DNA of 64,000 bases, taken from positions 241-64,240 of the forward strand of contig JACPPR010000030.1 in the NCBI GenBank assembly GCA_016190895.1, given 5' to 3'. The notes beneath the pieces were generated by a model. The model was not told the DNA's origin, ran no database searches, and saw only the letters and a list, made by a program, of their open reading frames with translations. The stretch comes from Chloroflexota bacterium (GTDB taxonomy: Bacteria > Chloroflexota > Dehalococcoidia > Dehalococcoidales > UBA2162). A program made the translations under genes and the position numbers. Positions 531 to 63,962 of the stretch are shown one piece after another; positions within the stretch are counted from its first letter, which is position 1; each line of letters begins with the position of its first letter.

Positions 531-1618
531 CTTATCACCTCCGGAATCAGTCCTGCCCTCATGGCGAAATCGCACAGGGTGACAGCCATCATCGCTTCCA
601 CCACGGGCACGGCTCGGGGTACGATGCAGGCATCGTGTCTGCCCTTAACTTCGAGGCTGGCGTTTTGCGTGCTTCTCAGGTCAACCGTCTCCTGTTTGCT
701 GGCGATGGAGGGGGTCGGCTTGACGGCAACTCTGAGCGTTAGAGGCATGCCATTGCTGATTCCGCCGAGGATGCCGCCGGAATTATTGGTGGCGGTCACT
801 ATTTTGCCATCCCTGACGGTGAACGGGTCGTTATTTTCTGAGCCTTTCTTGCTCGCGGCTGAGAACCCCGCCCCGAACTCCACCCCTTTAACCGCCGGCA
901 CAGCGAAGAGGGCTTTGGCTAAATCCCCTTCGAGCGTGTCCATTACAGGCTCCCCCAGCCCGGCAGGTATGTTGAGGGCGAAGCCTTCGATAACGCCGCC
1001 GAGGCTATCGCTCGACTCTCTGGCTTGCTCGATTAGCCTTAGCATCTCTTTGGCAGCTTCAGGGTCGGCGCACTTCAGCGGGTCTTTTTCGACATTTTTC
1101 CAGATTTCATCAAGCTCTTTCGACTGTGCCCTGACCCCGCCGATTTCAATGGTGTGGGCAAGAATTTCAACGCCGATGTGTTTGAGAAGTTGTTTGGCCA
1201 CCGCTCCCGCCATCACGAATGTAGCCGTAATTCTGCCGGAGAATCTGCCCCCGCCCCGGAAATCGTTGAAGCCGCCGTACTTGACGAAGGCGGTGTAATC
1301 CGCGTGCCCCGGCCTCGGTATGAAGCGGATGCGCTCGTAGGCGCTGGAATCGGCGTCCCGGTTCCAGGTCAAGAGGCAGACGGGCGCGCCGGTGGTGCGG
1401 CCGTTGAAAATGCCGGAGAGAATTTCCACCTTGTCTTCTTCGGCGCGGGTGGTCGATGCCACGCTGCCTCCCGGTCTACGCTTATCAACCTCTTTCTGGA
1501 TATCTTCGAGCGTGATGGGCAATCCGGCCGGGCAGCCATCGATAACCACGCCGACGCACCGCCCGTGGCTCTCCCCGAAGCTTGTCATCGTGAACAGTTT
1601 TCCTAGGCTATTTGCCAT
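527..1618 (-). CDS. aroC: Chorismate synthase
   Basis: 363-aa ORF with [28 protein letters not shown] and GGGRFSGR motifs; operon context. Confidence 0.95.
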
Positions 1619-2870
1619 CTAACTTCACCTCCCCGCCGATGCTTTTCAGGGTACCCCAGTATTCCGGATAGGTCTTCGAAACACATTCGGCGTCTTGAAT
1701 TACGGTGCCGCCTGTCACCACGCCCAGCAGGCTAAAAGCCATAGCGATGCGGTGGTCGCCGCGCGTGTCAATTTCGGCGCCTTTTACGCGCGAACCTGTT
1801 ATGGTCAATTTGTTTTCTTCTTCTACGACCTTGATGCCCATTTTTGTCAGGCCTTCGGCAAGGGCGGAGGGGCGGTCGGATTCTTTGATGCGTGCCCGGG
1901 CGATGCCGGTGAGTTCGCTCGTTCCTTCCGCCGCCGCGGCCAGGACAGCTACCGTCGGCAGCAGGTCAGTGCAATCGGTCAGGTCGGCTTTGAGCGCCTT
2001 GAGTTTCGACTTATGGACTATGACCGAGTCATTCTTGATTATAATGTCAGCCCCCATATCTCTCAGGAAATCGGCGATTGCCTTGTCTCCCTGCAGACTG
2101 GCGGGGTTCAGGTTGGTTACCTCTATTTCGCCGCCCAGCGCCCCCGCCGCCAGCAGGTAGGAGGCTGAAGACCAATCGCCTTCGACAAGATACTTCGCCG
2201 GCTTGTAGCTTTGTTTCTTAATCTTATATTCGCGGAAATCAGGGGAAGCCTCGACTTTGATGCCGAACTTCTCTAGGCTCTCGATTGTCATCTGGACGTA
2301 AGGCTGTGATTCTAGGTGGGTGGTCAGCCTGATGGTCATACTCTCTTCGGCAAAGGGCGAGATGAGCAGCAACGCGGAGACGTACTGGGAGCTGATGTTG
2401 CCAGGCAATTCTGTAGTGCCCCCCCTCAGCCTCCCGCCCCGGACCACGATGGTCTTATCTGCTTCCTGTTTACAATCGATGCCCAGTTGCTGCATTGCCT
2501 GGATGAGCGGGTCGATGGGCCGGCGGGCGAGGGAGGGGGCGGCGGTGAGGTGACAGCGCCCCGGGATGAGCGCGCAGATGGCGGTCATAAACCTGAGCGT
2601 CACGGCGGATTCGCGGCAGAAGAGGTCACCCGAAGGCGCATTGAAATTGCCCCCGCCCACCCGCCAGCCATCTTCGTCTTCGGTGACGCTGACGCCAATC
2701 TTGCCCAACACATCCCTGGCGGCTTCGGTGTCATCTGAGCCGAGGGGATTAACTATCCGGCTTTCGCCCTTAGCCAGGGCGGCGCAAAGCACCCCGCGAA
2801 GCGTGTAGCTTTTGGAGGGCGGGGCGCTTACCCTGCCTTTTATGTCACTTTTTGAAATCGAAGCTTTCAT
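1608..2870 (-). CDS. aroA: 3-phosphoshikimate 1-carboxyvinyltransferase (EPSP synthase)
   Basis: 420-aa ORF with [32 protein letters not shown] and GDHRIAMAF; 11-nt overlap with aroC. Confidence 0.95.
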
Positions 2871-3402
2871 TCTCTTTCAGCCCGGCTATTATTTCTTCAA
2901 CCACGCCCTCGATGTCCAGTTTCGAGGTGTTAATCATAATATCTGCGGAGCGCTCGTAATATGGTTTCCTGAATTGTAGCATATCTTTGATTGTTTGCAG
3001 CGGGTCTTTCACATCGAGCAGCGGACGCTGCCCCTGCTGAAGCGCCGTCCGCTTCAGGATTGTTTGCGCCGAGGCCGTCAGGCAGACTATCACGCCGCGC
3101 TCTCTGAGGCGGTCGATGTTTATCTTGTTAAGAACAACGCCTCCGCCGCAGGCAATCACGGCGTTCTTTTCCATAGCGATTTGCCTCACGGCTTCTATTT
3201 CAAGCTCCCTGAAGGCTATCTCGCCGTCCTCACGGAAAACTTCAGGTATCTTCTTGCCGGCGAGCTGCTCGATAAGCCAGTCCACCTCGAAGAACCGCAT
3301 ATCCAGTTTCTCAGCCAGCCGCCTGCCGACGGCCGTCTTGCCGGTGCCCATGTAGCCTATGAGGGCGATGTTGGTTTTCAATCTGAAATCCCTCTCATCC
3401 AT
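2845..3402 (-). CDS. aroK: Shikimate kinase
   Basis: The track ORF 2845-3564 is inflated at its N-terminus by read-through of an intergenic repeat. Start placed at ATG 3402 (MDERDFRLKTNIALIGYMGTGKTAVGRRLA, Walker A). Overlaps the aroA start by 26 nt. Confidence 0.88.
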   Translation of the reverse strand: MDERDFRLKTNIALIGYMGTGKTAVGRRLAEKLDMRFFEVDWLIEQLAGKKIPEVFREDGEIAFRELEIEAVRQIAMEKNAVIACGGGVVLNKINIDRLRERGVIVCLTASAQTILKRTALQQGQRPLLDVKDPLQTIKDMLQFRKPYYERSADIMINTSKLDIEGVVEEIIAGLKENESFDFKK

Positions 3403-3494: not shown

Positions 3495-4358
3495 TTAGGA
3501 ATCTCCCAGAAGCTTTAATGCCTCCGCCTTCATCAACTCCACCGGCGCTTTCTGTCCGGTCCACTTTTCAAAAGCCAAAGCTCCCTGCCAGACGAGCATA
3601 TCGAGGCCGCTGATGGTCTTGCAGCCGGCGGCTTCTGCTTCCCGCAAGAGCCTGGTCTTGACCGGATTATAGACAATGTCATAGACGACTAGCCCCGGTT
3701 TCAGCAACTCGGCGGGCACCGGCGTTTCATCAGATTTCGGACTCATGCCAACCGGTGTGGCGTTGACCAGAATTTCGGTTTTCGCCAAAGTTTTCGCGAG
3801 GTTCCCCGGCGAAAGCTCTAAAGCGGCTACTGAGCTACCGAAAGTCTGCGAAATCCGGTCGGCTAAGTCCTTCGCCCTGTCTTGCTGGCGGTTAAGGATT
3901 ATCAGATTAGCTCCGCGCTCAGCCAGGATGAACGATATGCCTCTCGACGCCCCACCCGCCCCCACCAGCGCGACATTGTTCCCCTTCGGCTCGATGCCAG
4001 ATTCCAGCAACGGCTGGAGAAAGCCGGTGGCGTCTGTATTGTAGCCGGTCAAGACTCCATCATCATTGACGATGGTGTTGGCCGCGCCGATTTTCTCAGC
4101 CAGTGGGTCGAGCCTGTTCAGCAGCTTCATAACAGCCACCTTGTGCGGGATGGTGACATTCAGCCCCCTCATATTCAAAGCCCGCATTCCGGCAATGGCC
4201 TTATCAAGCTCTGTTCCTTTTACCCTGAAGGAGACGTAGACATAGTCCAGCCCGAGCTTCGCGAAGGCGGCGTTGTGCATCGCCGGGGACATCGTGTGCT
4301 CGACCGGGTCGCCGATGAGGCCACAGACCCTCGTTTTACCTGAGATGTTGGTTGTCAT
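3495..4358 (-). CDS. aroE: Shikimate dehydrogenase
   Basis: 287 aa with GLIGDPVEHTMSPAMHNAAF, GYNTDATGF and VGAGGASRG. Confidence 0.93.
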   Translation of the reverse strand: MTTNISGKTRVCGLIGDPVEHTMSPAMHNAAFAKLGLDYVYVSFRVKGTELDKAIAGMRALNMRGLNVTIPHKVAVMKLLNRLDPLAEKIGAANTIVNDDGVLTGYNTDATGFLQPLLESGIEPKGNNVALVGAGGASRGISFILAERGANLIILNRQQDRAKDLADRISQTFGSSVAALELSPGNLAKTLAKTEILVNATPVGMSPKSDETPVPAELLKPGLVVYDIVYNPVKTRLLREAEAAGCKTISGLDMLVWQGALAFEKWTGQKAPVELMKAEALKLLGDS

Positions 4359-23896: not shown

Positions 23897-23950
23897 CCCG
23901 AAAAATCCAAATGTCAAAATCCAAATGCCAAGTAAAGCTCAAAGCTCTAC
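23897..23950. repeat. AT-rich CAAAT/ATTTG word repeat
   Basis: AAATCCAAATGTCAAAATCCAAATGCCAAGTAAAGCTCAAAGC. Confidence 0.6.
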
Positions 23951-41503: not shown

Positions 41504-43009
41504 TTGTTTATGAAAGACCGCTTATCGGACACGATGGAATCAGTGAAATCTACCTTGTCTCCGTTAGCGCCGCTGGTCAAGCGGCGCTGGTTCAAAGGAC
41601 TGGTAATGGCGTTCATTCTGTTCGGGGCTTTCTGGGGATTGCCGGCTATCGCCCGCGCCGCCGACCCGACCGGCACGGATACTTTTAACGCTAATCCCAA
41701 CAGCGCCGTCAATATGGCCTGGACGCTCATCACCGGTTTCCTGGTCTGGTTTATGCAGCTCGGTTTCGCCTTCCTGGGCGCCGGTCTGATTCGCTCCAAG
41801 AATCAGACTAACTACTGGACGAAGAGCTTTATGGATTTTTGTATCGCCTCGCTGGGCTTCTGGGCATTTGGGTTCGCCCTGATGTTCGGAGGCTCGAAGT
41901 TATTTCCCGGCCTAGATGACGGTAATGCGTGGATAGGTTTTTCCGGGTTTTTCCTGAGCGGCGGCGCCTATGATGTCTCGACGATTATGATGTGGTTCTT
42001 CCAGATGGTCTTTGCCGCTACCGCCACGACTATCGTTGCCGGCGCCGTGGCCGAAAGGATGAAGATTTCTGCCTACCTGGCTTACGCCTTTATTATCGGC
42101 GCTCTTATTTATCCTCTCTATGGTAAGTGGATATGGGGTGGCGGGTGGCTGGGCAGCTTAAGTATTGCTGGCGCTGCGGGCGCCAGAGACTTTGCTGGCT
42201 CCAGCGTCGTTCACATGGTCGGCGGATTGGCTGCCCTGATTGGTGCGGCTATGGTCGGACCGAGAATCGGCAGATTCAATAAGGATGGGACGCCCAATAA
42301 CATCAAAGGTCATAACCTGCCTTTTGTCGTTATCGGTACCTTCATCCTTTTCTTCGGCTGGTTCGGTTTTAATCCCGGCAGCACCCTGGCGGCTACCGAC
42401 CTGCGTATCTCGGTCATCGCTGTCAATACTTTCCTGGCCGGCGTTACCGGCGCGGTAGTAGCGCTCTACTGGGTTTTTGCCAAGACCGGCAAGATGGATA
42501 TCATCATGGGCTGCAACGGTAGTCTGGTCGGGCTGGTCGCCGTTACTGCGCCGGCGGCCTATATCGCTCCGTGGGCGGCAGTGCTCATCGGAGCGATAGC
42601 GGTTCCATTCATGTTTGCCACGAATCATGTTGTTGAGCGTGTGCTCAAGGTAGACGATGCCGTAGGCGCCGTCCCGGTGCACCTGGGTGGAGGGATGTGG
42701 GGCATGCTGGCAGTGGGTATTTTCGCCGATGGAACCTATCTAGGGGTCAAGGGACTCATTGCCGGTGAGATAGGCCAGCTAATCCTGCAACTAGTCGCCA
42801 TCGGGACTGTGTTTGTCTGGGTGGGCGTAACGGCCTTCCTTACCTTCTGGGCTATCAGAAAGAGCATCGGTCTGCGGGCTAGCCGTGAAGAAGAGCTGCA
42901 GGGGCTGGATATACCAGAGCACGGCATAGAAGCCTATCCGGCTGATTCCAGTATCACTTTAGGCGGAAGTACTCCTGTTGTTCCAAAGGCGCTCCCGGTT
43001 ACTCGTTAA
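41504..43009 (+). CDS. amt: Ammonium transporter (long form with signal-peptide-like N-terminus)
   Basis: AGSSVVHMVGG and FGWFGFNPGS. Start is TTG 41504 or ATG 41510, after AGGAGG. Confidence 0.92.
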   Translation: MFMKDRLSDTMESVKSTLSPLAPLVKRRWFKGLVMAFILFGAFWGLPAIARAADPTGTDTFNANPNSAVNMAWTLITGFLVWFMQLGFAFLGAGLIRSKNQTNYWTKSFMDFCIASLGFWAFGFALMFGGSKLFPGLDDGNAWIGFSGFFLSGGAYDVSTIMMWFFQMVFAATATTIVAGAVAERMKISAYLAYAFIIGALIYPLYGKWIWGGGWLGSLSIAGAAGARDFAGSSVVHMVGGLAALIGAAMVGPRIGRFNKDGTPNNIKGHNLPFVVIGTFILFFGWFGFNPGSTLAATDLRISVIAVNTFLAGVTGAVVALYWVFAKTGKMDIIMGCNGSLVGLVAVTAPAAYIAPWAAVLIGAIAVPFMFATNHVVERVLKVDDAVGAVPVHLGGGMWGMLAVGIFADGTYLGVKGLIAGEIGQLILQLVAIGTVFVWVGVTAFLTFWAIRKSIGLRASREEELQGLDIPEHGIEAYPADSSITLGGSTPVVPKALPVTR

Positions 43010-43471: not shown

Positions 43472-44704
43472 ATGCCCATTAATTCCGGTGATACTGCCTG
43501 GATACTGGTTTCGGCAGCCCTGGTGATGCTGATGACGCCGGGGCTGGCTCTTTTCTATGGGGGGATGGTGAGACGGAAGAACGTGCTCTCCACCATGATG
43601 ATGAGCTTCGCCATGCTCGGTCTGGTCGGCATTCTCTGGGTGCTCTATGGGTACAGTTTGAGCTTCGCTCCTGATATAGGTGGCATCATCGGCGGTTTTG
43701 ACTTCTTAGGACTCAAGAATGTCGGGCAGGACCCGTCATCGGTCTATGCCACCACCGTTCCTCACCTGGCCTTTATGATATATCAGGCGATGTTTGCCAT
43801 AATTACCGTCGCCTTATTTACGGGAGCCGTTGTCGACAGGATAAAATTCAGCGCATTGCTTGTCTTTTCGGCTCTGTGGTTGACCCTCATTTACGTTCCG
43901 GTGGCGCACTGGGTGTGGGGCGGCGGGTGGCTGGCGAAGCTGGGCGCCCTCGATTTTGCCGGCGGCACCGTGGTTCATATCAATGCCGGTGTCTCGGCGC
44001 TGGCTTTAGCCCTGCTCCTGGGACCCCGTAAGGGTTTTAAGGACAAGGAGCCTATGGAGGCCCACAATATTCCCTGGGTAATGCTGGGCGCGGGCTTGCT
44101 CTGGTTCGGTTGGTTCGGCTTTAACGCCGGCAGCGCTCTCACGGCTGGCGGGTTGGCTTCCAGCGCATTCGTTGCTACCAATACTGCTGCCGCCAGCGCC
44201 GCTTTCACCTGGATGCTGCTGAGCTGGATTTACCGACGTCCGACGGCTTTGGGAACGGTCACCGGCGCCGTTATCGGACTGGTGGCCATTACTCCTGCGG
44301 CCGGCTTTGTTGCACCGATAATGGGCATTCCCATAGGTATGGGGGCAGCCCTGGTCGGCTATTATGCCATGCTTGTCCGGGCAAAAACGCGGGTGGACGA
44401 TTCTCTGGATGTCCTGGCCTGCCATGGGATGGGGGGTATCTGGGGAGCTTTAGCGACCGGTATTTTTGCCAGCGTCGCTGTCAATTCAGCCGGAGCCGAC
44501 GGCCTGATTTTTGGTAATGCTATGCTGGTCGTCAAACAATTGGTTGCTATCGTCGCCGTTGGAGTCTTTGCCTTCGTCGGCACCTGGATTTTGGGCAAGC
44601 TCGTCGATATCACTATCGGGCTTCGAGTTAGTCCTACTGAAGAAAATCTGGGTCTTGATATATCCCAGCACGGTGAAAGAGCTTATGGAGGGCTTGCACG
44701 ATAA
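43472..44704 (+). CDS. amt: Ammonium transporter
   Basis: 410 aa with DFAGGTVVHINAG and FGWFGFNAGS. Confidence 0.94.
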   Translation: MPINSGDTAWILVSAALVMLMTPGLALFYGGMVRRKNVLSTMMMSFAMLGLVGILWVLYGYSLSFAPDIGGIIGGFDFLGLKNVGQDPSSVYATTVPHLAFMIYQAMFAIITVALFTGAVVDRIKFSALLVFSALWLTLIYVPVAHWVWGGGWLAKLGALDFAGGTVVHINAGVSALALALLLGPRKGFKDKEPMEAHNIPWVMLGAGLLWFGWFGFNAGSALTAGGLASSAFVATNTAAASAAFTWMLLSWIYRRPTALGTVTGAVIGLVAITPAAGFVAPIMGIPIGMGAALVGYYAMLVRAKTRVDDSLDVLACHGMGGIWGALATGIFASVAVNSAGADGLIFGNAMLVVKQLVAIVAVGVFAFVGTWILGKLVDITIGLRVSPTEENLGLDISQHGERAYGGLAR

Positions 44705-44736: not shown

Positions 44737-44764
44737 GTAGGGGCGCAGCATGCTGCGCCCCTAC
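44737..44764. repeat. Same palindrome family
   Basis: GTAGGGGCGCAGCATGCTGCGCCCCTAC, between amt2 and amt3. Confidence 0.85.
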
Positions 44765-44871: not shown

Positions 44872-46104
44872 ATGCCCATTAATTCCGGTGATACTGCCTG
44901 GATATTGGTCTCGGCAGCCCTGGTTATGCTCATGACTCCAGGGCTGGCTCTTTTCTACGGGGGGATGGTGCGGCGGAAGAACGTGCTTTCGACTATGATG
45001 ATGAGCTTTGCCATGCTGGGTTTGGTCGGCCTTCTCTGGGTGCTTTATGGCTATAGCCTGAGCTTCGCTCCTGATATGAGTGGCATCATCGGCGGTTTTG
45101 ACTTTATGGGTTTGCGGAACGTTGGACAGGAACCGTCCTCGGTTTATGCCACCACTGTTCCTCACCTGGCCTTTATGATATATCAGGCGATGTTCGCTAT
45201 CATCACTGTCGCCCTCTTCACCGGAGCCGTTGTGGACAGGATAAAGTTCGGCGCTCTGCTGGCGTTCTCAGCCTTGTGGCTGACATTCATCTATACGCCA
45301 GTGGCGCACTGGGTGTGGGGTGGTGGCTGGCTGGCAAAGCTGGGCGTTCTGGACTTCGCCGGCGGCGTGGTAGTTCACATCAATGCCGGTATGTCGGCTT
45401 TGGCTCTGGCTTTGCTGCTGGGTCCCCGCAAGGGTTTTGTTGAAAAGGAACCGATGGAAGCGCACGATATTCCTATGGTGATGCTGGGGGCAGGGTTGCT
45501 CTGGTTCGGCTGGTTCGGCTTCAATGCCGGCAGCGCCTTCACTGCCGGCGGGCTGGCCTCCAGCGCCTTTGTGGCTACGAATACGGCCGGGGCCGCCGCT
45601 GCCTTTACCTGGATGCTGCTTAGCTGGATATACCGCAGACCGACGGCTCTTGGGACAGTCACCGGGGCTGTTATCGGGCTGGCTGCGGTCACTCCGGCCG
45701 CCGGTTTTATCTCGCCGATAATGGGAATACCCATCGGCATCGGGGCGGCGCTGGTTGGGTACTATGCTATGCTTTTCCGGTCGAAATCACGTGTCGATGA
45801 TTCCCTGGATGTTATGGCTGCTCACGGTATGGGTGGTATCTGGGGAGTGCTGGCGACAGGCATATTTGCCAGTGTGGCTGTCAATGCGGCGGGAGCCGAT
45901 GGGCTTATCTTCGGAAACGGAGCGCAGTTACTGAAGCAGATGGCTGGCGTTGTTGCCGTCGGCGGCTTTTCTTTTATCGGGACGCTGATTTTGGGCAAGC
46001 TCGTCGATGCTACTATCGGTCTTAGAGTTACCCGCACTGAAGAGAATTTGGGCCTTGATATATCTCAGCATGGTGAAAGAGCTTATGGAGGGTTGGGAAG
46101 ATGA
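44872..46104 (+). CDS. amt: Ammonium transporter (tandem paralogue of the previous gene)
   Basis: 410 aa; by eye roughly 85-90 percent identical to amt2. Confidence 0.94.
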   Translation: MPINSGDTAWILVSAALVMLMTPGLALFYGGMVRRKNVLSTMMMSFAMLGLVGLLWVLYGYSLSFAPDMSGIIGGFDFMGLRNVGQEPSSVYATTVPHLAFMIYQAMFAIITVALFTGAVVDRIKFGALLAFSALWLTFIYTPVAHWVWGGGWLAKLGVLDFAGGVVVHINAGMSALALALLLGPRKGFVEKEPMEAHDIPMVMLGAGLLWFGWFGFNAGSAFTAGGLASSAFVATNTAGAAAAFTWMLLSWIYRRPTALGTVTGAVIGLAAVTPAAGFISPIMGIPIGIGAALVGYYAMLFRSKSRVDDSLDVMAAHGMGGIWGVLATGIFASVAVNAAGADGLIFGNGAQLLKQMAGVVAVGGFSFIGTLILGKLVDATIGLRVTRTEENLGLDISQHGERAYGGLGR

Positions 46105-54300: not shown

Positions 54301-54400
54301 ATCAAATAATACCAATACTACCAATAAGTACCAATATTTGAGTAATTCAATATTTGTTGAATTATTTGTAGTATTTGACATTTGTAGTATTGGTAGTATT
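54301..54400. repeat. AT-rich word repeat / palindrome upstream of nrpR
   Basis: AATACCAATACTACC ... ATTCAAtatttgTTGAAT ... GTAGTATTGGTAGTATT. Contains TTGACA at 54375-80. Confidence 0.65.
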
Positions 54401-54405
54401 TTTCT

Positions 54406-55401
54406 ATGGTGCAAAAAATCAGTTCTGACGGGGAAAGGAAGCTCCTGGCGATTCTGAAGGTGCTTAGTGAATCTTCAGAACCGCTCGGTTCGGCCACCAT
54501 CGCCCGCGAGCTTGAGCGCTACGGCATTTACCTGAGCGAGCGCGGGGTCAGGTATAACCTGAAGCTAGCCGATGAGCGCGGCTATACCCAGCCGATGGGC
54601 CGTGACGGGCGGATGATTACCACTCAGGGCTTGCAAGAACTGACGGCGGCGCTGGCTCCCGAGCGGGTTGGTTTCGTCCTCGAAAAACTGGAACTGCTTG
54701 CCTTTCAGACCACTTTCGACCCGGCAAAACGCACCGGCCGGGTGCCGATAAATACCTCGCTCATCGATAAGAGCCAGTTCAAGAAAGCGCTCGCGGTAAT
54801 GGGCGCCGCTTTCAAGGCCGGAATCTGCGTCAGCGACCTGGTGGCTACCGCCTCAGAGGGTGAAAAGCTCGGCTCGGTAGTCGTGCCCCCTGGTAAAATC
54901 GGCCTGGCGACAGTCTGCAGCGCCACCATTAACGGCGTGCTGCTAAAAGCTGGCGTGCCCGTCGAGTCGAAGTTCGGCGGCGTGCTTGAAGTCAGGAAAT
55001 CTCAGCCCAGCCGTTTTGTGGCTATCATCAACTATTCCGGCACCTCGCTCGACCCTTCCGAGCAGTATATCCGCGCCCGGATGACCAGCGTCGGCAAGGT
55101 CATCACTACCGGGAGTGGGCGGCTGCTGGCCAATTTCAGGGAGATGCCGGCCCTATCGAGGGCGCTGGCTGAGGAGAAAATCGCCCAACTCAAGGCGGCG
55201 GGGATTGGTGGGGTCTACGCCCTTGGCAATACCAGCGAGCCGCTCTGCCAGATTCCGGTCGGTCTCAACCGCGTGGGGATGGTGCTGCTGGGCGGCTTGA
55301 ATCCGATAACTCTCGCCGTCGAGGCAGGCATCGAGATTGACAACATCGCCGAAAGCGGGCTGGTTGATTTCGAGCGACTGGTTAGCTTTTGGAAAATTTA
55401 G
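54406..55401 (+). CDS. nrpR: NrpR-like nitrogen regulatory protein (wHTH + one NrpR/DUF128-type domain)
   Basis: 331 aa with LAILKVLSESSEPLGSATIARELERYGIYLSERGVRYNLKLADERGYT..GRDGRMITTQGLQEL and GLATVCSATINGVLLKAG. Family assignment is from memory of COG1693-type proteins. Confidence 0.7.
   Translation: MVQKISSDGERKLLAILKVLSESSEPLGSATIARELERYGIYLSERGVRYNLKLADERGYTQPMGRDGRMITTQGLQELTAALAPERVGFVLEKLELLAFQTTFDPAKRTGRVPINTSLIDKSQFKKALAVMGAAFKAGICVSDLVATASEGEKLGSVVVPPGKIGLATVCSATINGVLLKAGVPVESKFGGVLEVRKSQPSRFVAIINYSGTSLDPSEQYIRARMTSVGKVITTGSGRLLANFREMPALSRALAEEKIAQLKAAGIGGVYALGNTSEPLCQIPVGLNRVGMVLLGGLNPITLAVEAGIEIDNIAESGLVDFERLVSFWKI
55318..55401 (+). repeat. Direct repeat copy 1 (functional 3' end of nrpR)
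   Basis: 77/84 nt identical to 55985-56068, in register including the TAG stop. Confidence 0.9.
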
Positions 55402-55477
55402 GTGGGAAGTGTCATTCTGGAGTCCGACAAGTCGGGACGAAGAATCTCAGGGCGGGGGAGGCATTTCTATTTCAGTT

Positions 55478-55506
55478 TTAGCCTCGTTCTGAAGTTATGT
55501 TATAAT
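55478..55506 (+). promoter_or_regulatory. Promoter-like element of hicBA
   Basis: TTAGCC (55478-83), 17-nt spacer including TGT, TATAAT (55501-06). Confidence 0.5.
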
Positions 55507-55529
55507 CTTATTTGAAGAAGGTGACAGAA

Positions 55530-55736
55530 ATGAAATTCCGTATTGTCCTTGAGTATGACCCGGAGACCAAAAGTTATGCTGCCTACTGCCCGGAATTGCC
55601 GGGGTGTTGCAGCGCTGGCGATACAGAGGAAGAAGCGCTCGAAAACATCAAGGAGGCTATTTCTCTATATCTTGAACCCTCTCCCGTAAAACTGAACCCG
55701 GATGAGAAGGTTTTTGAGGTGGAAGTACCTGTCTGA
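55530..55736 (+). CDS. hicB: HicB-like antitoxin (UPF0150)
   Basis: MKFRIVLEYDPETKSYAAYCPELPGCCSAGDTEEEALENIKEAISLYLE. ATG 55530 lies downstream of the predicted -10. Confidence 0.8.
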   Translation: MKFRIVLEYDPETKSYAAYCPELPGCCSAGDTEEEALENIKEAISLYLEPSPVKLNPDEKVFEVEVPV

Positions 55737-55960
55737 TGCCTCAGAAGCTACCAAGGTTAAGAGCTAGTGAGGTAATCCGAGTCCTTCAACGGCATGATTT
55801 CATTCTTGTTTCACAGCGTGGCAGCCATCAGAAGTGGCGTCATCCGGATACAGGGAATCAGGTTATTGTCCCTTACCACAAAGGGAAACAACTCCCGCTA
55901 GGTACCATCAGAAGCATCATTGAAGGGAGTCACATTCCAGAAAAAGAATTTCGCCCGTAG
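55736..55960 (+). CDS. hicA: HicA-like mRNA interferase toxin
   Basis: LPRLRASEVIRVLQRHDFILVSQRGSHQKWRHPDTGNQVIVPYHKGKQLPLGTIRSII. Its ATG overlaps the hicB stop. Confidence 0.82.
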   Translation: MPQKLPRLRASEVIRVLQRHDFILVSQRGSHQKWRHPDTGNQVIVPYHKGKQLPLGTIRSIIEGSHIPEKEFRP

Positions 55961-55984
55961 CTTCCCCGTGGTTTGGCTTCGGTC

Positions 55985-56068
55985 GTCGAGGCAGGCATCG
56001 AGATTGACAACATCGCCGAAAGCGGGTTGGTTGATTTTGAGCGACTGGTGAGCTTCTGGAGACTGTAG
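55985..56068 (+). pseudogene. Orphan duplicate of the last 27 codons of nrpR
   Basis: Encodes VEAGIEIDNIAESGLVDFERLVSFWRL*, versus ...FWKI* in nrpR. No upstream coding continuity. Confidence 0.85.
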
Positions 56069-56089
56069 AGGGGGGCTTGTTGTCATTCT

Positions 56090-56117
56090 GTAGGGGCACA
56101 GCATGCTGTGCCCCTAC
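56090..56117. repeat. Same palindrome family
   Basis: GTAGGGGCACAGCATGCTGTGCCCCTAC, right after the orphan nrpR fragment. Confidence 0.85.
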
Positions 56118-56149
56118 AGCGCCCGTTCGAGCTTCCCCACGAGTCACGG

Positions 56150-56240
56150 GAGAGTTTGAGAGGGCTTCGCCCTCTCAAGAGAAATCTCTTTCCCCTCTCC
56201 GCTTGCGGAGAGGGGAACACAAGGGGTGAGGTGATCCCCC
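56150..56240. repeat. GGGAGAGG-hairpin repeat family
   Basis: GAGAGGGCttcGCCCTCTC plus CCCCTCTCCGCTTGCGGAGAGGGG. Confidence 0.75.
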
Positions 56241-56242
56241 CC

Positions 56243-56272
56243 TTGACAACCCCTCTGAGCCTATTGTATAGT
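56243..56272 (+). promoter_or_regulatory. Promoter-like element upstream of the Rrf2 gene
   Basis: TTGACA (56243-48), 18-nt spacer, TATAGT (56267-72). A second TATAAT lies at 56294-99. Confidence 0.4.
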
Positions 56273-56316
56273 AAAGTCACTACTTCAGTCACCTATAATA
56301 CTTATTTAAGATATTT

Positions 56317-56760
56317 ATGAAACTTTCTACTCGCGGACAATACGGCGCCAGGCTTCTGCTGGATTTAGCCCTCCATAAGGCGGAGGGGCCGGTCTTATTA
56401 AAAGACATCGCCAGGAGACAGGAGATTCCGCTTGCTTATCTGAAGCATCTGGTGGCTCCGTTAGTGGGCGCGGGAATACTGCGCAGCGCCCGGGGCGCCA
56501 AGGGCGGCCTATTGCTGGCCAAGCCTCCCGAGCAGGTAAAGCTGAGAGAGGTAATCCAGCTCCTCGAAGGCCCAATCAACCCCGTCGAGTGCGTTAATGA
56601 CCCCGCCGTCTGCGGGCGCTCGTCTTCCTGCGCCACCCGAGATGTCTGGGTCGACCTGCAGAAGGCGATGGAGGGGGTCTTAGAGGCGACTACTGTTGCG
56701 AACCTGGTGGAGCGGCACCGTGAGAAAGAACAGCCGGTCGGGGCGATGTACAATATATAA
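56317..56760 (+). CDS. Rrf2-family transcriptional regulator with three-Cys cluster motif
   Basis: MKLSTRGQYGARLLLDLA...; Cys motif CVNDPAVCGRSSSC. Confidence 0.88.
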   Translation: MKLSTRGQYGARLLLDLALHKAEGPVLLKDIARRQEIPLAYLKHLVAPLVGAGILRSARGAKGGLLLAKPPEQVKLREVIQLLEGPINPVECVNDPAVCGRSSSCATRDVWVDLQKAMEGVLEATTVANLVERHREKEQPVGAMYNI

Positions 56761-56935
56761 ATCCTAAATACTAATATCGAAGCACTAAACAAATCCAAAT
56801 TACCAAAGCGCCCAAATGCCAATCAAATGACAAATGACGGAGTTCAGGTGACGAAATATTTTGAGTTTTCGATTTTGAACTTGTTTAGAATTTAGGATTT
56901 CGTGCTTAGAGTTTGGAAATAGCAGAATAAAGTTA
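56761..56935. repeat. AT-rich word repeat, long imperfect palindrome
   Basis: ATCCTAAAT..CGAAGCACTAAACAA is inverted as TTGTTTAGAATTTAGGATTTCGTGCTTAG. Confidence 0.7.
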
Positions 56936-56958
56936 CATAATGATTAAGAGGAGGGAAA

Positions 56959-57924
56959 ATGCAACATAGTCTGAAGAGGGAAGCTAAGCGCCTGGACATG
57001 GATTTCGATGTCCTGAAGAGTGGGGGATTTATCAAGCAGACGCAGGAGGACCTTTTCACGGTCAGGCTGCGCTGCCCCGGGGGGCGGGTGACTTCGCAAC
57101 AGCTGCGTATGGCCGCCGAGATAGCGGACAAATACGGGCAGGGGGAGATTCACAACTCATTCCGCCAATCGATAGAAGTTCCTTATGTGCACCATAAATA
57201 CTTCGACGCCGTCGATGCCGACCTGAAATCGATTAACTGGTCGGTGGCTTCCTGCGGTCCCCGTATCCGGGTGCCGACCGCCTGCGCCGGCTGCACCTAT
57301 AATCCTAACGGCCTGATGGATACTCAGAATATGTGCTTCGAGGTGGACAAAAAATACTTCGGCACGGCGACCACCCATCATAAATTCAAGATTTCCTTTT
57401 CCGGTTGTCCCATCGATTGCGCCCGCACCCGGGAGATGGACTTAGGCTTTCAGGGGATTGTCGAGCCGGAGTTGGATGATGACAAATGCACTAGTTGCGG
57501 ACTGTGCGTGGCAGCCTGCGAAGAGCAATCACTTACTATGGTGAAGGACGGCAAGCCGGTGAGAGACCTGAGCAAGTGCAATTACTGCGGTGACTGCATC
57601 AAAGTCTGCCCGGTGGATGCGATGATTGCCAAGAGGAAGGGCTGGCTCATCCGGGCCGGAGGCAAGCACGGCAAACATCCCATCTACGCTTACGAAGTGG
57701 CTCAGTTTGCCACCAACGAGCAGGGTTATGCCCTGATTGAAAAGACGATGGAATGGTATAAAGCCAATAGTAAAGGTCGAGAACGAATCGGCGCTACCAT
57801 GGGACGGCTGAACCTTGATAGATACCTCACCGAGGTCGTTAAACCGCTTGGACTGGAGGTGATAGAGACCCCTGAGCAGAGACAAAAGTTCTGGGCATCG
57901 GGGAACATGTATCAGAACAAATAG
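56959..57924 (+). CDS. Small sulfite/nitrite-reductase-like hemoprotein with inserted ferredoxin domain
   Basis: PTACAGCTYNPNG and FSGCPIDCA (siroheme/4Fe-4S type), plus CTSCGLCVAACE and CNYCGDCIKVCP. Confidence 0.75.
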   Translation: MQHSLKREAKRLDMDFDVLKSGGFIKQTQEDLFTVRLRCPGGRVTSQQLRMAAEIADKYGQGEIHNSFRQSIEVPYVHHKYFDAVDADLKSINWSVASCGPRIRVPTACAGCTYNPNGLMDTQNMCFEVDKKYFGTATTHHKFKISFSGCPIDCARTREMDLGFQGIVEPELDDDKCTSCGLCVAACEEQSLTMVKDGKPVRDLSKCNYCGDCIKVCPVDAMIAKRKGWLIRAGGKHGKHPIYAYEVAQFATNEQGYALIEKTMEWYKANSKGRERIGATMGRLNLDRYLTEVVKPLGLEVIETPEQRQKFWASGNMYQNK

Positions 57925-62286: not shown

Positions 62287-62430
62287 CGTCATTGCGAGAC
62301 CATCCCGACTTTGTCGGGAGGCGAAGCAATCCGTGTGGGGCGAAACCTTCCACCCAGATTGCCACGTCGCTTCACTCCTCGCAATGACACCTCGGTGAGA
62401 TTCTTGGATTCAGACTCACGGATTAGAGAG
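62287..62430 (+). repeat. ~140-nt ATTGCGAG-family element, left copy flanking the UPF0261 gene
   Basis: Alignable end to end with 63808-63962 in the same orientation. Confidence 0.85.
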
Positions 62431-62470: not shown

Positions 62471-63688
62471 TCACTGTTCGATGATATCAAGGAATTCATT
62501 TGCCACCGCCTGGGCAAATTCATCATCATTGATGTGGGCGTCGATTTCCTTCACTGTAATGGCTCTGTTCAACGAACTTTTTAGAGAATCGATGAACGCC
62601 TCATCGGCTGCGGGGTCGTAAAAAATGTTTCCCACGCGGTCGAGTGAAGAGAAACCGCGCAGAGGAATCAGCACTCTCACCGGCCCGCTAGCCCGGTTCA
62701 GTTTCCTGGCTACTTCCTTGCCAATTACTCTTAGTTCCTCGGCATTTACTCTCGGCAGGGTTGCCTGCGGGTTATGATAAGCGATGGTACTGTTTTTATA
62801 TCGTTCAGGCAGCGTCTCCGGAGCCAGGAAGTTTAAGATATCGATGCAGCCGGGAGTGACAATTTGTGGGATTCCCTTCTCACCGGCGGCTTCAAGGCGG
62901 TGTGGGCCGGCCGAGGCAAGTCCGCCAAAAAGCTCGTTCCCGATTTCGTTTAATCCTAGCTCTATGACACCCTTTACCGAATTGGTTTTAATCAATTCTT
63001 CGAAGGTCTGCCCGCCGACGCCGATAGCGTGAAATATGGCTACCTCGAAGCCCCTGTCTTCAAGAGATGCTTTAACTCTCAGCCCGCAGCCAGTGGACAG
63101 ACCGGTCATGGTCATGAACACCAGCGGTTTCCCAGATTCCTCGGCTTCGGCTGCTCCCACCATACCGATGATGGCGCCGACTGCTGTGCTTAAGGCGCCT
63201 CTGGTCAGCCTGTTCAATCCGGCTATGTCGGCCACCGATGGCATGACGACGATATCCTTGGTTCCTACATAGTTGCGGATGCCCGCCTGAACAATCTTTT
63301 GGGAAGAGAGCATAAACTTGGGCACGCCTATGGGAAGCCCCTTCATCACTGCCGAGGCTACCGCGGAACCCATGCCGCCTCCTATGGAAATGACCCCCCG
63401 AAATTTGCCTGCCCGGTACAAATCTGTGGCGATTTTTATGGCTCCGGCTGTCATAATTTTCGCAGCCGGGCCGGATTCCGGAAGCGCCCTGACTGCCTCG
63501 ATTGTGCTGCCGGCTGCCCTGGCGACTTCATCGGCGGTGATATCGGCAGCGAAGGCAGCTTTCTCCTGGCTGCTGATGTCCATAACCAGAGCGCGGAAGC
63601 CCCTCTTCCGGTCTATCAGTTGTTTTACGTAATCAAGCTCGGGGCCTTTGGTATCCAGTGTCCCGATGCACAGAATAGTCTTTTTCAA
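62471..63688 (-). CDS. UPF0261 / Tm-1-like ATP-binding domain protein
   Basis: 405 aa, starting MKKTILCIGTLDTKGPELDYVKQLI... Confidence 0.75.
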   Translation of the reverse strand: MKKTILCIGTLDTKGPELDYVKQLIDRKRGFRALVMDISSQEKAAFAADITADEVARAAGSTIEAVRALPESGPAAKIMTAGAIKIATDLYRAGKFRGVISIGGGMGSAVASAVMKGLPIGVPKFMLSSQKIVQAGIRNYVGTKDIVVMPSVADIAGLNRLTRGALSTAVGAIIGMVGAAEAEESGKPLVFMTMTGLSTGCGLRVKASLEDRGFEVAIFHAIGVGGQTFEELIKTNSVKGVIELGLNEIGNELFGGLASAGPHRLEAAGEKGIPQIVTPGCIDILNFLAPETLPERYKNSTIAYHNPQATLPRVNAEELRVIGKEVARKLNRASGPVRVLIPLRGFSSLDRVGNIFYDPAADEAFIDSLKSSLNRAITVKEIDAHINDDEFAQAVANEFLDIIEQ

Positions 63689-63807: not shown

Positions 63808-63962
63808 CGTCATTGCGAGACCATTCCGCTGCAGCGGAAGGCGAAGCAATCCGTGAGGGGAGGGGGTTTTACCCCTCCCAGATTGCCACGTCGCTTCGCT
63901 CCTCGCAATGACACCTCGGCGGTGAGATTCCTGAATTCGGACTTACGGATTAAGGATTAAGG
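63808..63962 (+). repeat. ~150-nt ATTGCGAG-family element, right copy
   Basis: CGTCATTGCGAGACCAT.CCG...GGCGAAGCAATCCGTG...CAGATTGCCACGTCGCTTC.CTCCTCGCAATGACACCTCGG. Confidence 0.85.

Follow-up and report, generated by a model that had tools for sequence, protein, structure and literature searches.

A hicB-hicA Cassette Between Two Versions of the nrpR 3' End in an Uncultured Member of the Dehalococcoidia, and Its Possible Entry by Homology-Anchored Recombination

The 64,000-nucleotide stretch of DNA analysed here (the window; positions 241 to 64,240 of contig JACPPR010000030.1, assembly GCA_016190895.1) comes from an uncultured member of the Dehalococcoidia and includes a small toxin-antitoxin (TA) cassette, hicB-hicA, which lies between the genes nrpR and rrf2 and is flanked by a direct repeat of the nrpR 3' end. 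The nrpR gene (54406-55401, on the forward strand, as are the other genes and both repeat copies at this locus) is intact and codes for a protein of 331 amino acids, the commonest length among NrpR homologues, that matches the Pfam families HTH_12 and NRD1_2 (267 bits, E 1e-79). It is followed by a stretch resembling repetitive extragenic palindromic (REP) sequences, TGTCATTCTGGAG...CGAAGAATCTCA (55410-55450), which was recognised by alignment to two relatives, L082 and L088, described below, and for which a pattern scan of the window gave a single match. At 55498-55506, 24 nt 5' of the hicB ATG, the sequence reads TGTTATAAT, which is a perfect extended -10 box (TGnTATAAT). The hicB gene (55530-55736), preceded by an AAGGTG ribosome-binding site, overlaps hicA (55736-55960) by one nucleotide, and a 23-nt spacer (55961-55983) that shows no nrpR similarity and contains the right-hand junction of the insert connects the hicA stop codon to the second copy of the nrpR end. 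The conserved right-hand neighbour is rrf2 (56317-56760), which together with its promoter (TTGACA-18-TATAGT) occupies 56243-56760.

A repeat search reported a single direct repeat in this region, between nucleotides 55317-55406 and 55984-56073 (90 nt, 90% identity, spacing 667 nt), and such a match within 667 nt is far beyond chance. Copy A (55317-55422) consists of the working 84-nt nrpR tail, a short spacer and TGTCATTCTGGAG, while copy B (55984-56093) consists of a displaced 84-nt tail with its frame intact, a spacer and TGTCATTCTGTAG. The 84-nt segments, 55318-55401 and 55985-56068, are identical at 77 of 84 positions (92% at the nucleotide level) and are in the same reading frame. Copy A ends by encoding VEAGIEIDNIAESGLVDFERLVSFWKI and a stop (...LVSFWKI), copy B by encoding ...LVSFWRL and a stop, and a tblastn search with NrpR residues 305-331 retrieved copy B at 93% identity. 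Each copy is followed by TGTCATTCTG, at 55410 and 56081, a motif without a third occurrence in the window (chance expectation 0.12). When a 4-nt indel is allowed the repeat reaches approximately 55422 and 56093, and beyond TGTCATTCTG the sequences 3' of the two copies are unrelated, the copy A flank beginning with GAGTCCGACAAG from 55423 onward. On its left side the repeat ends abruptly: the 100 nt that precede copy A and those that precede copy B show no similarity to each other (651 of 1000 shuffles score equally). The first-pass annotation, made from the sequence alone, had described the duplication in register at 77 of 84 positions, the motif common to both copies and a cassette without an integrase between them. 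Repeat search and alignment bear out the first two points, and the interval holds the REP-like stretch, the extended -10 box, hicB, hicA and the 23-nt spacer and nothing else, hicB and hicA being the only genes that the Pfam scan detected there.

The differences between the two tails are not evenly spread. The first 43 nt (55317-55359) are identical, and the seven differences are all confined to the last 42 of the 84 nt (P ~0.005 if they were spread uniformly). Six codons are changed, four of them by synonymous third-position substitutions, and the last two carry the conservative replacements K/R and I/L. The two tails resemble each other (77/84) more than either resembles the tail of any relative (at most 72/84). 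Judged by these substitutions, the spare tail looks like the nrpR allele of another lineage and not like a decaying local copy. A second, shorter similarity is found further downstream, where TATAAT(A)CTTATTT(G)AAGA is matched at 18 of 19 positions between 55501-55518, upstream of hicB, and 56294-56311, upstream of the rrf2 start (1 of 1000 shuffles equals it). This suggests that the duplication may comprise a longer module, which would begin with the nrpR tail, end with the rrf2 leader and have an unrelated interior in each copy; the match may also have arisen by chance in AT-rich promoter DNA.

The two genes of the cassette can be considered a predicted type II hicAB TA pair. The 74-amino-acid HicA includes the GSH motif and matches HicA_toxin (PF07927) with 66.4 bits against a cut-off of 27, and the 68-amino-acid HicB matches HicB_lk_antitox (PF15919) with 42.7 bits against the same cut-off value; as in known hicAB systems, the genes are small, adjacent, co-oriented and overlapping, which is an operon arrangement. 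On the other hand, the antitoxin gene comes first and HicB is a short form, which recurs in the homologous pairs that were examined. Its residues 3 to 50 match positions 1-47 of the 123 of the PF15919 profile, that is, the toxin-binding N-terminal domain, and a Pfam scan of the 68-amino-acid protein found no C-terminal DNA-binding domain of the ribbon-helix-helix or helix-turn-helix type. Autoregulation, if there is any, must therefore work differently. The pair is probably transcribed from its own TGTTATAAT box; a two-hexamer promoter scan did not call this box, which has no -35 element. The stretch after copy A was also considered as a terminator hairpin, which was ruled out by its fold z-score of 0.13; it is a REP-like sequence with homologues in L082 and L088.

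The nrpR locus was then compared with 160 loci of more distant relatives (80 from GTDB and 80 from metagenomes; numbers preceded by L designate individual loci), with NrpR proteins 64-89% identical and mostly 64-76% identical to that of the window. The order glnA-nadE-nrpR is kept upstream and the downstream side is variable. No hicBA pair follows nrpR in any of the 160 loci. Empty-type sites, which had been proposed as a check, are found in relatives: in L085 (NrpR 89% identical) rrf2 begins 188 nt after nrpR with nothing between them; in L171 the intact nrpR stop codon is followed by 22 nt and then by the palindrome GTAGGGGCAC...GTGCCCCTAC, of the same type as that at 56090 in the window; and in L088 nrpR is followed by rpsB, with the REP-like part also directly 3' of nrpR. 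These three sites belong to other species (NrpR identity at most 89%). The closest relative, L082 (NrpR 94% identical at the protein and 85.6% at the nucleotide level), carries after nrpR (coordinates 1063-1239) the REP-like stretch and TGTTATAATC as in the window, diverges fully 5 nt past the -10 box, and ends with its contig 177 nt past the nrpR stop codon. The extended -10 motif of the window also follows nrpR in L082 and L086. Thus the flank of copy A, composed of the REP-like stretch and TGTTATAAT, matches the DNA downstream of nrpR in L082, and in its REP-like part in L088, while the flank of copy B, composed of the 22-nt spacer and the GTAGGGGCAC... palindrome, matches the DNA downstream of nrpR in L171. 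Two nrpR 3' contexts that occur naturally are thus brought together at this locus, one on each side of hicBA. Exact look-ups of NrpR, HicA and HicB found no copy from the same genome or the same species, and that of Rrf2 found L081 alone, a contig of 1152 nt that is identical to 56149-57300 and stops short of copy B. The read set SRR12113390 contains an identical strain.

Remnants of the nrpR tail are present behind other cargo in some relatives. In L086 (NrpR 88% identical; 1128-3110) nrpR is followed by a TGTGTTATAAT box, a hicA-like gene and hicB (toxin first), a tail remnant, a serine-recombinase gene, an open reading frame (ORF) and then rrf2. Its HicB is 46% identical to that of the window, the gene order is opposite and the hicA-like product scores below the Pfam cut-off. 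The tail remnant is 24 nt long (22/27 match, reached by 0 of 2000 shuffles), the recombinase has 310 amino acids, a Resolvase N-terminal domain and a weak likeness to IS607/CcrB, and the ORF, on the other strand, codes for 127 amino acids. Just upstream of rrf2, beyond the recombinase gene (3080-3300), no tail repeat was seen by eye. The nrpR-rrf2 gap thus holds hicBA in the window, nothing in L085, and a hicA-like gene with hicB, a recombinase gene and an ORF in L086. In L083 and L084, which come from two samples (NrpR 89% identical), an ORF of 140 codons follows nrpR and is itself followed by a 57-nt tail remnant reading AESGLVDFERLVSFWGL and a stop (cassette region 3879-4381 in L083). The spare and the working tail of L083 differ in eight codons, seven of them synonymously, with frame and stop intact. 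The 57-nt remnant is closer to the tails of the window than to the working tail of L083 itself. Apart from L087, a duplicate of the L084 contig, the only further nrpR-tail repeat among the 160 loci is that of L109 (NrpR 73% identical), a perfect 49-nt repeat (2861-2909 and 3869-3917) made of the last 13 nt of nrpR and 36 nt of downstream DNA. It brackets a cassette of about 960 nt in which a TTGACA/TATACT promoter is accompanied by two small ORFs in the same orientation (110 and 97 amino acids); this cassette may be called TA-like on account of its size, arrangement and own promoter, and the second repeat copy lies inside a minus-strand ORF of 108 amino acids. The L109 cassette ORFs, the 140-codon ORF of L083 and the 127-codon ORF of L086 gave no significant match to a Pfam or NCBIfam family. 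Relative to the nrpR stop, the repeats extend from -85 to +22 in the window, from -54 to +2 in L083, from -24 to 0 in L086 and from -13 to +36 in L109.

The HicBA family itself was examined beyond nrpR. The closest HicA is 85% identical to that of the window, at least 280 homologues were found at E of 1e-10 or lower, and the homologues for which a source is given are labelled Dehalococcoidia or Chloroflexota. The search found no second copy of the window hicBA with the same flanks, which the first-pass annotation had proposed to look for, nor any near-identical copy, and it found no HicA relative on viral contigs. The three homologous pairs for which the context was fetched (L167, L169 and L170) all sit 23-27 nt after dnaN. 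Their HicA proteins are 81-82% identical to that of the window, the pairs show 75-78% nucleotide identity, and their HicB partners also have 68 amino acids. These dnaN-associated hicBA pairs (L169, 2771-3330; L167, 350-913; and L170) seem to lack their own promoter. About 80 nt past hicA there is a remnant of some 25 nt of the dnaN end in L169 (22/27 match) and in L167 (20/27), each reached by at most 1 of 2000 shuffles, and that of L167 still reads DIPMFVQW and a stop despite nucleotide changes; no dnaN remnant was detectable in L170. The three loci represent one ancestral event and are counted as one further locus. As an estimate of how often such remnants occur, the last 27 nt of each gene were searched for up to 2.5 kb downstream of that gene. 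The scan of 1621 ORF tails in 1.48 Mb, a sample that is centred on nrpR and is not unbiased, gave seven matches of at least 20/27 against none in a reversed-query control; these were the nrpR cases, dnaN, two tandem-paralogue pairs and one borderline match. Gene-tail remnants are therefore not common background noise. The other hits of general tail scans, a region of REP sequences with a putative REP-associated tyrosine transposase (L107), tandem paralogues (amt in the window, and L026) and borderline matches (L072 and L166), were not cassette insertions.

The reading that we favour, to which we give a probability of about 0.55, is that the 667-nt unit is a horizontally acquired, recombinase-less hicB-hicA islet that entered the nrpR/rrf2 boundary by recombination anchored in the nrpR 3' end, with no dedicated integrase. 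The spare tails of the window, L083 and L167 carry mostly silent changes, which indicates that the tails diverged while they were coding, that is, in different genomes. This pattern, taken with the two different natural flanks, argues that DNA with an nrpR tail beside hicBA was taken up by recombination into a genome in which a tail of its own was present before, and the variable bounds of the repeats, together with the lack of a recombinase in the cassette and in the scanned neighbourhood, count against a fixed attachment (att) site and favour an import anchored by homology. The incoming DNA would have come from a related lineage of the Dehalococcoidia and would have carried its own nrpR tail beside hicBA. 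One join would be a homologous crossover within the tail, of which the 43-nt identical block is the likely zone. The other join could have been made by the closing of a small circle, in a single crossover of the Campbell type, or by illegitimate end-joining at nucleotide -85 of nrpR, as in homology-facilitated illegitimate recombination, so that the intermediate may have been circular or linear. Either route would yield nrpR with a complete tail, the cassette, a second, allelic tail and the old downstream DNA. Transfer into this genome is the direction that the structure suggests, and one of the two tails would then be foreign. The view that the element arrived with a replacement end for the gene thus stands insofar as an insertion beside nrpR left two versions of the gene end; either tail may be the replacement, and the flanks of copies A and B each match those of relatives. 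The 43-nt block could in addition permit a precise RecA-dependent excision that restores nrpR and releases a circle with one repeat, and addiction to HicA would be expected to penalise loss of the cassette.

Several points weigh against this reading. No donor and no empty allele from the same species was available, and the closest nrpR, at 85.6% nucleotide identity, leaves the breakpoint unmappable and the tails unassigned to a source. Breakpoint mapping within nrpR failed because the relatives are too divergent (78-86% nucleotide identity for the closest), and when the four synonymous sites were used to assign the foreign tail, by alignment and by eye, the relatives gave mixed signals. For the window alone the third-position argument is weak (5 of 7 changes, binomial P ~0.045), and gene conversion could likewise yield an identical 5' block. 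The single-crossover model accommodates the 18/19 match upstream of hicB and rrf2 and does not predict it, and the origin of the first circle, or of the first fragment joining tail and cassette, is left unexplained. The serine recombinase in the nrpR-rrf2 gap of L086 makes enzyme-driven events there possible, and natural competence or another route of DNA uptake is not known for the organism.

The serine recombinase of L086 is also what gives substance to an alternative that we regard as unlikely although worth weighing, namely site-specific integration. The cassette would be a small cis-mobilisable unit with an attP that includes the nrpR 3' end, acted on in trans by a recombinase, for instance a serine recombinase such as those of the Dehalococcoides ssrA islands, and the working tail would represent attL and the spare tail attR. 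A direct repeat of a gene 3' end that brackets foreign DNA, the existence of empty sites, the gene with the Resolvase domain in the L086 gap and the last 13 nt of nrpR common to all four repeats are what such integration would leave. However, the bounds differ in each case (left, -85, -54, -24 and -13; right, +22, +2, 0 and +36), no common motif was seen by eye at the cassette ends, the recombinase of L086 has no relative in the window, no recombinase was found among the genes scanned at 39.6-64 kb, and L086 shows no visible tail repeat on the far side of its recombinase gene, upstream of rrf2. A stop codon shared by all the repeats is what selection alone would produce, as only insertions that spare nrpR survive. 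For the same reasons, the four different sets of bounds and the lack of a recombinase in the cassette or at 39.6-64 kb, the analogy drawn at first with integrative islands at tRNA genes is not supported. Less probable still is a local event, in which the insertion of hicBA duplicated its target in place through a long staggered break, a template switch or a tandem duplication, copy B then drifting while gene conversion kept 43 nt identical. The L109 repeat, perfect and mostly intergenic, does look like a fresh target duplication, the tails of the window have more positions in common with each other (77/84) than with those of any relative, and the second short repeat lies just upstream of hicB and rrf2. 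A dead copy, on the other hand, should change at all codon positions and along its full length, and this is not the pattern of the seven differences confined to the 3' half with four of six codons synonymous, nor that of L083, where seven of eight changed codons are synonymous and frame and stop are kept, nor that of the dnaN remnant of L167, which retains its peptide and stop; moreover, past TGTCATTCTG the flanks are unrelated and each matches the nrpR flank of a different relative.

It is very improbable that no insertion took place, the structure being either a mis-assembly that merged strains or a vertically inherited remnant, with copy B representing the end of a second nrpR gene that has degraded. 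The contig of the window (70,886 nt) is indeed of the metagenome type, the structure is not covered in full by any independent contig (L081 covers 56149-57300 only), and a second nrpR paralogue lies nearby in L017, L022 and L053. Even in a mixture of strains, however, the junction of hicA, 23 nt and tail must exist in the reads, so that the remnant behind hicA is real, and independent assemblies gave structures of this kind for two samples (L083 and L084) as well as for L086 and L109. A longer degraded nrpR paralogue, which the first-pass annotation had named as part of what would overturn its view, is ruled out: no nrpR similarity exists upstream of copy B, and the paralogues found elsewhere are only ~52% identical to nrpR against the 92% nucleotide identity of copy B. 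The empty sites of the relatives also speak against the absence of an insertion. With the import of hicBA anchored by homology preferred over these alternatives, a broader scheme may be considered, which we put forward as a speculation with rather low odds. In it, hicBA pairs with a short HicB and other small Dehalococcoidia cassettes would be recombinase-free "tail-hitchhikers": repeats of a host gene tail would bracket each copy, a circle with one repeat, released by RecA recombination, would use that repeat as a homing arm to enter the same conserved gene in naive cells and leave the gene intact, the toxin would punish loss, and the nrpR end would be a preferred site throughout the class (four independent cassettes), with dnaN as another.

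In the Neisseria concept of minimal mobile elements, such elements occupy hot spots between conserved core genes. The cassette described here resembles these elements and TA islets in being a bare TA pair between conserved genes, in the variable or missing cargo at the site (window, L085 and L086) and in having no mobility gene. Integrase-less TA islets whose spread is attributed to homologous recombination at flanking core genes have been described (Belot et al. 2026, PMC13617665), and a text search of that paper found no description of a duplicated 3' end of the flanking gene, which distinguishes our case; the allelic spare tail further implies that clean double crossovers do not account for every event here. 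When effector cassettes of type VI secretion systems are swapped next to vgrG, the breakpoint lies where the conserved gene upstream has its 3' end, and the swapping has been attributed to homology-facilitated illegitimate recombination (PMC11751169). The window shares with that process the breakpoint at a 3' end and the variable downstream cargo, and its far junction is sharp and apparently without homology, although microhomology at the joint is possible. In that process, however, insertion is usually accompanied by a deletion, and here the far join lies upstream of the end of the anchor, so that 85-107 nt are duplicated. The ssrA islands of Dehalococcoides extend over kilobases; their 20-bp repeat is constant, their crossover point is fixed, and they carry a conserved integration module with the serine recombinase DsiB (McMurdie et al. 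2011, PMC3146451). By analogy they are the nearest enzyme-driven counterpart. They belong to the same bacterial class, a single-copy gene has its 3' end repeated at the far edge of the foreign DNA, and integrase-less cis-mobilisable units have been proposed among them; in contrast, the repeats described here range from 24 to ~107 nt, there is no integration module, the coding cargo of the window amounts to 431 nt and the target codes for a protein. Recombination in the conserved part of rhs and cdiA genes brings in a new gene end with one or more linked small genes and displaces the old end downstream as an orphan toxin tip. Copy B is likewise a displaced gene end kept as a remnant downstream, but in rhs and cdiA the end is itself the toxin payload, whereas here the protein sequences of the two NrpR ends hardly differ and it is hicBA, a separate pair of genes, that forms the payload.

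How bare TA pairs enter chromosomes without mobility genes is still debated. The readable footprint found here, a spare tail with mostly silent differences, argues that the end of a conserved host gene moved together with the cassette and that homology, not a dedicated enzyme, made the join. In uncultured Dehalococcoidia this footprint is seen again at nrpR, where the cargo differs, and at dnaN, where the hicBA pairs are related ones. Should it prove general, it would provide a simple sequence signature with which to detect and date such imports in metagenomes, and it points to a possible route for reversible, addiction-stabilised insertion beside essential or regulatory genes. TA islets in hot spots are known; what is unusual here is the informative gene-tail footprint, and the finding does not bring to light a new kind of molecular machine.

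The remaining features of the region are those of a housekeeping neighbourhood. The nrpR gene closes a nitrogen cluster, amt-glnB-glnA-...-glnA-nadE-nrpR, and on its side the 39.6-64 kb region includes three amt genes, glnB, two glnA genes, a gene for an aminoacyl-tRNA synthetase and nadE, while the rrf2 side includes a sulfite-reductase-like gene and genes for a phosphoadenosine phosphosulfate reductase and a pyridoxal phosphate enzyme. Pfam detected no recombinase between the repeats or among the genes scanned in this region, and the L086 recombinase used as query found no relative within the window. ARAGORN found no tRNA or tmRNA gene in the window as a possible target, and Rfam gave one chance-level match alone. 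Between copy B and rrf2 there is a perfect 16+16 palindrome of a dispersed REP family (56088-56119; fold -33 kcal/mol, z-score -4.3), found again at 44737 and followed here by a GC-rich cluster of REP-like hairpins (56120-56235; inverted repeat, fold -60.5 kcal/mol, z-score -4.8) that extends towards the rrf2 promoter. An integron cassette was considered and rejected: no GTTRRRY core was seen at either junction (by eye, without a dedicated attC model), no integrase was found nearby and the palindrome at 56088 is of the dispersed REP type.

Members of this REP family, GTAGGGGC[AG]CAGCATGCTG[CT]GCCCCTAC, form the palindromes at 44737-44764 and 56090-56117 of the window, and in L107 (10277-11203) an ORF that by eye resembles a REP-associated tyrosine transposase lies amid palindromes of the same family. 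Composite REP-like repeats of ~140 nt, with blocks 88-96% identical, are located at 62290-62430 and 63810-63955 around a gene of the UPF0261 family (62471-63688, minus strand); the GTCATTGCGAG...CGAAGCAATC core of these repeats is similar to the DNA that follows nrpR copy A, with paired changes in both arms. AT-rich intergenic repeats of the AAATCCAAAT... type (25-50 nt) occur between genes of the nitrogen and sulfur clusters at 23903, 27115, 28082, 52392, 52417, 56758 and nearby. Just 5' of nrpR, in an AT-rich region, a 22-nt inverted repeat (54304-54325 and 54380-54401), with 91% complementarity and 54 nt between its arms, may serve as an operator or form a structured leader. Further upstream, two tandem amt paralogues (43472-44704 and 44872-46104), which share a 300-nt block at 86% identity, precede glnB and glnA, and a third amt gene is located at 41504-43009.

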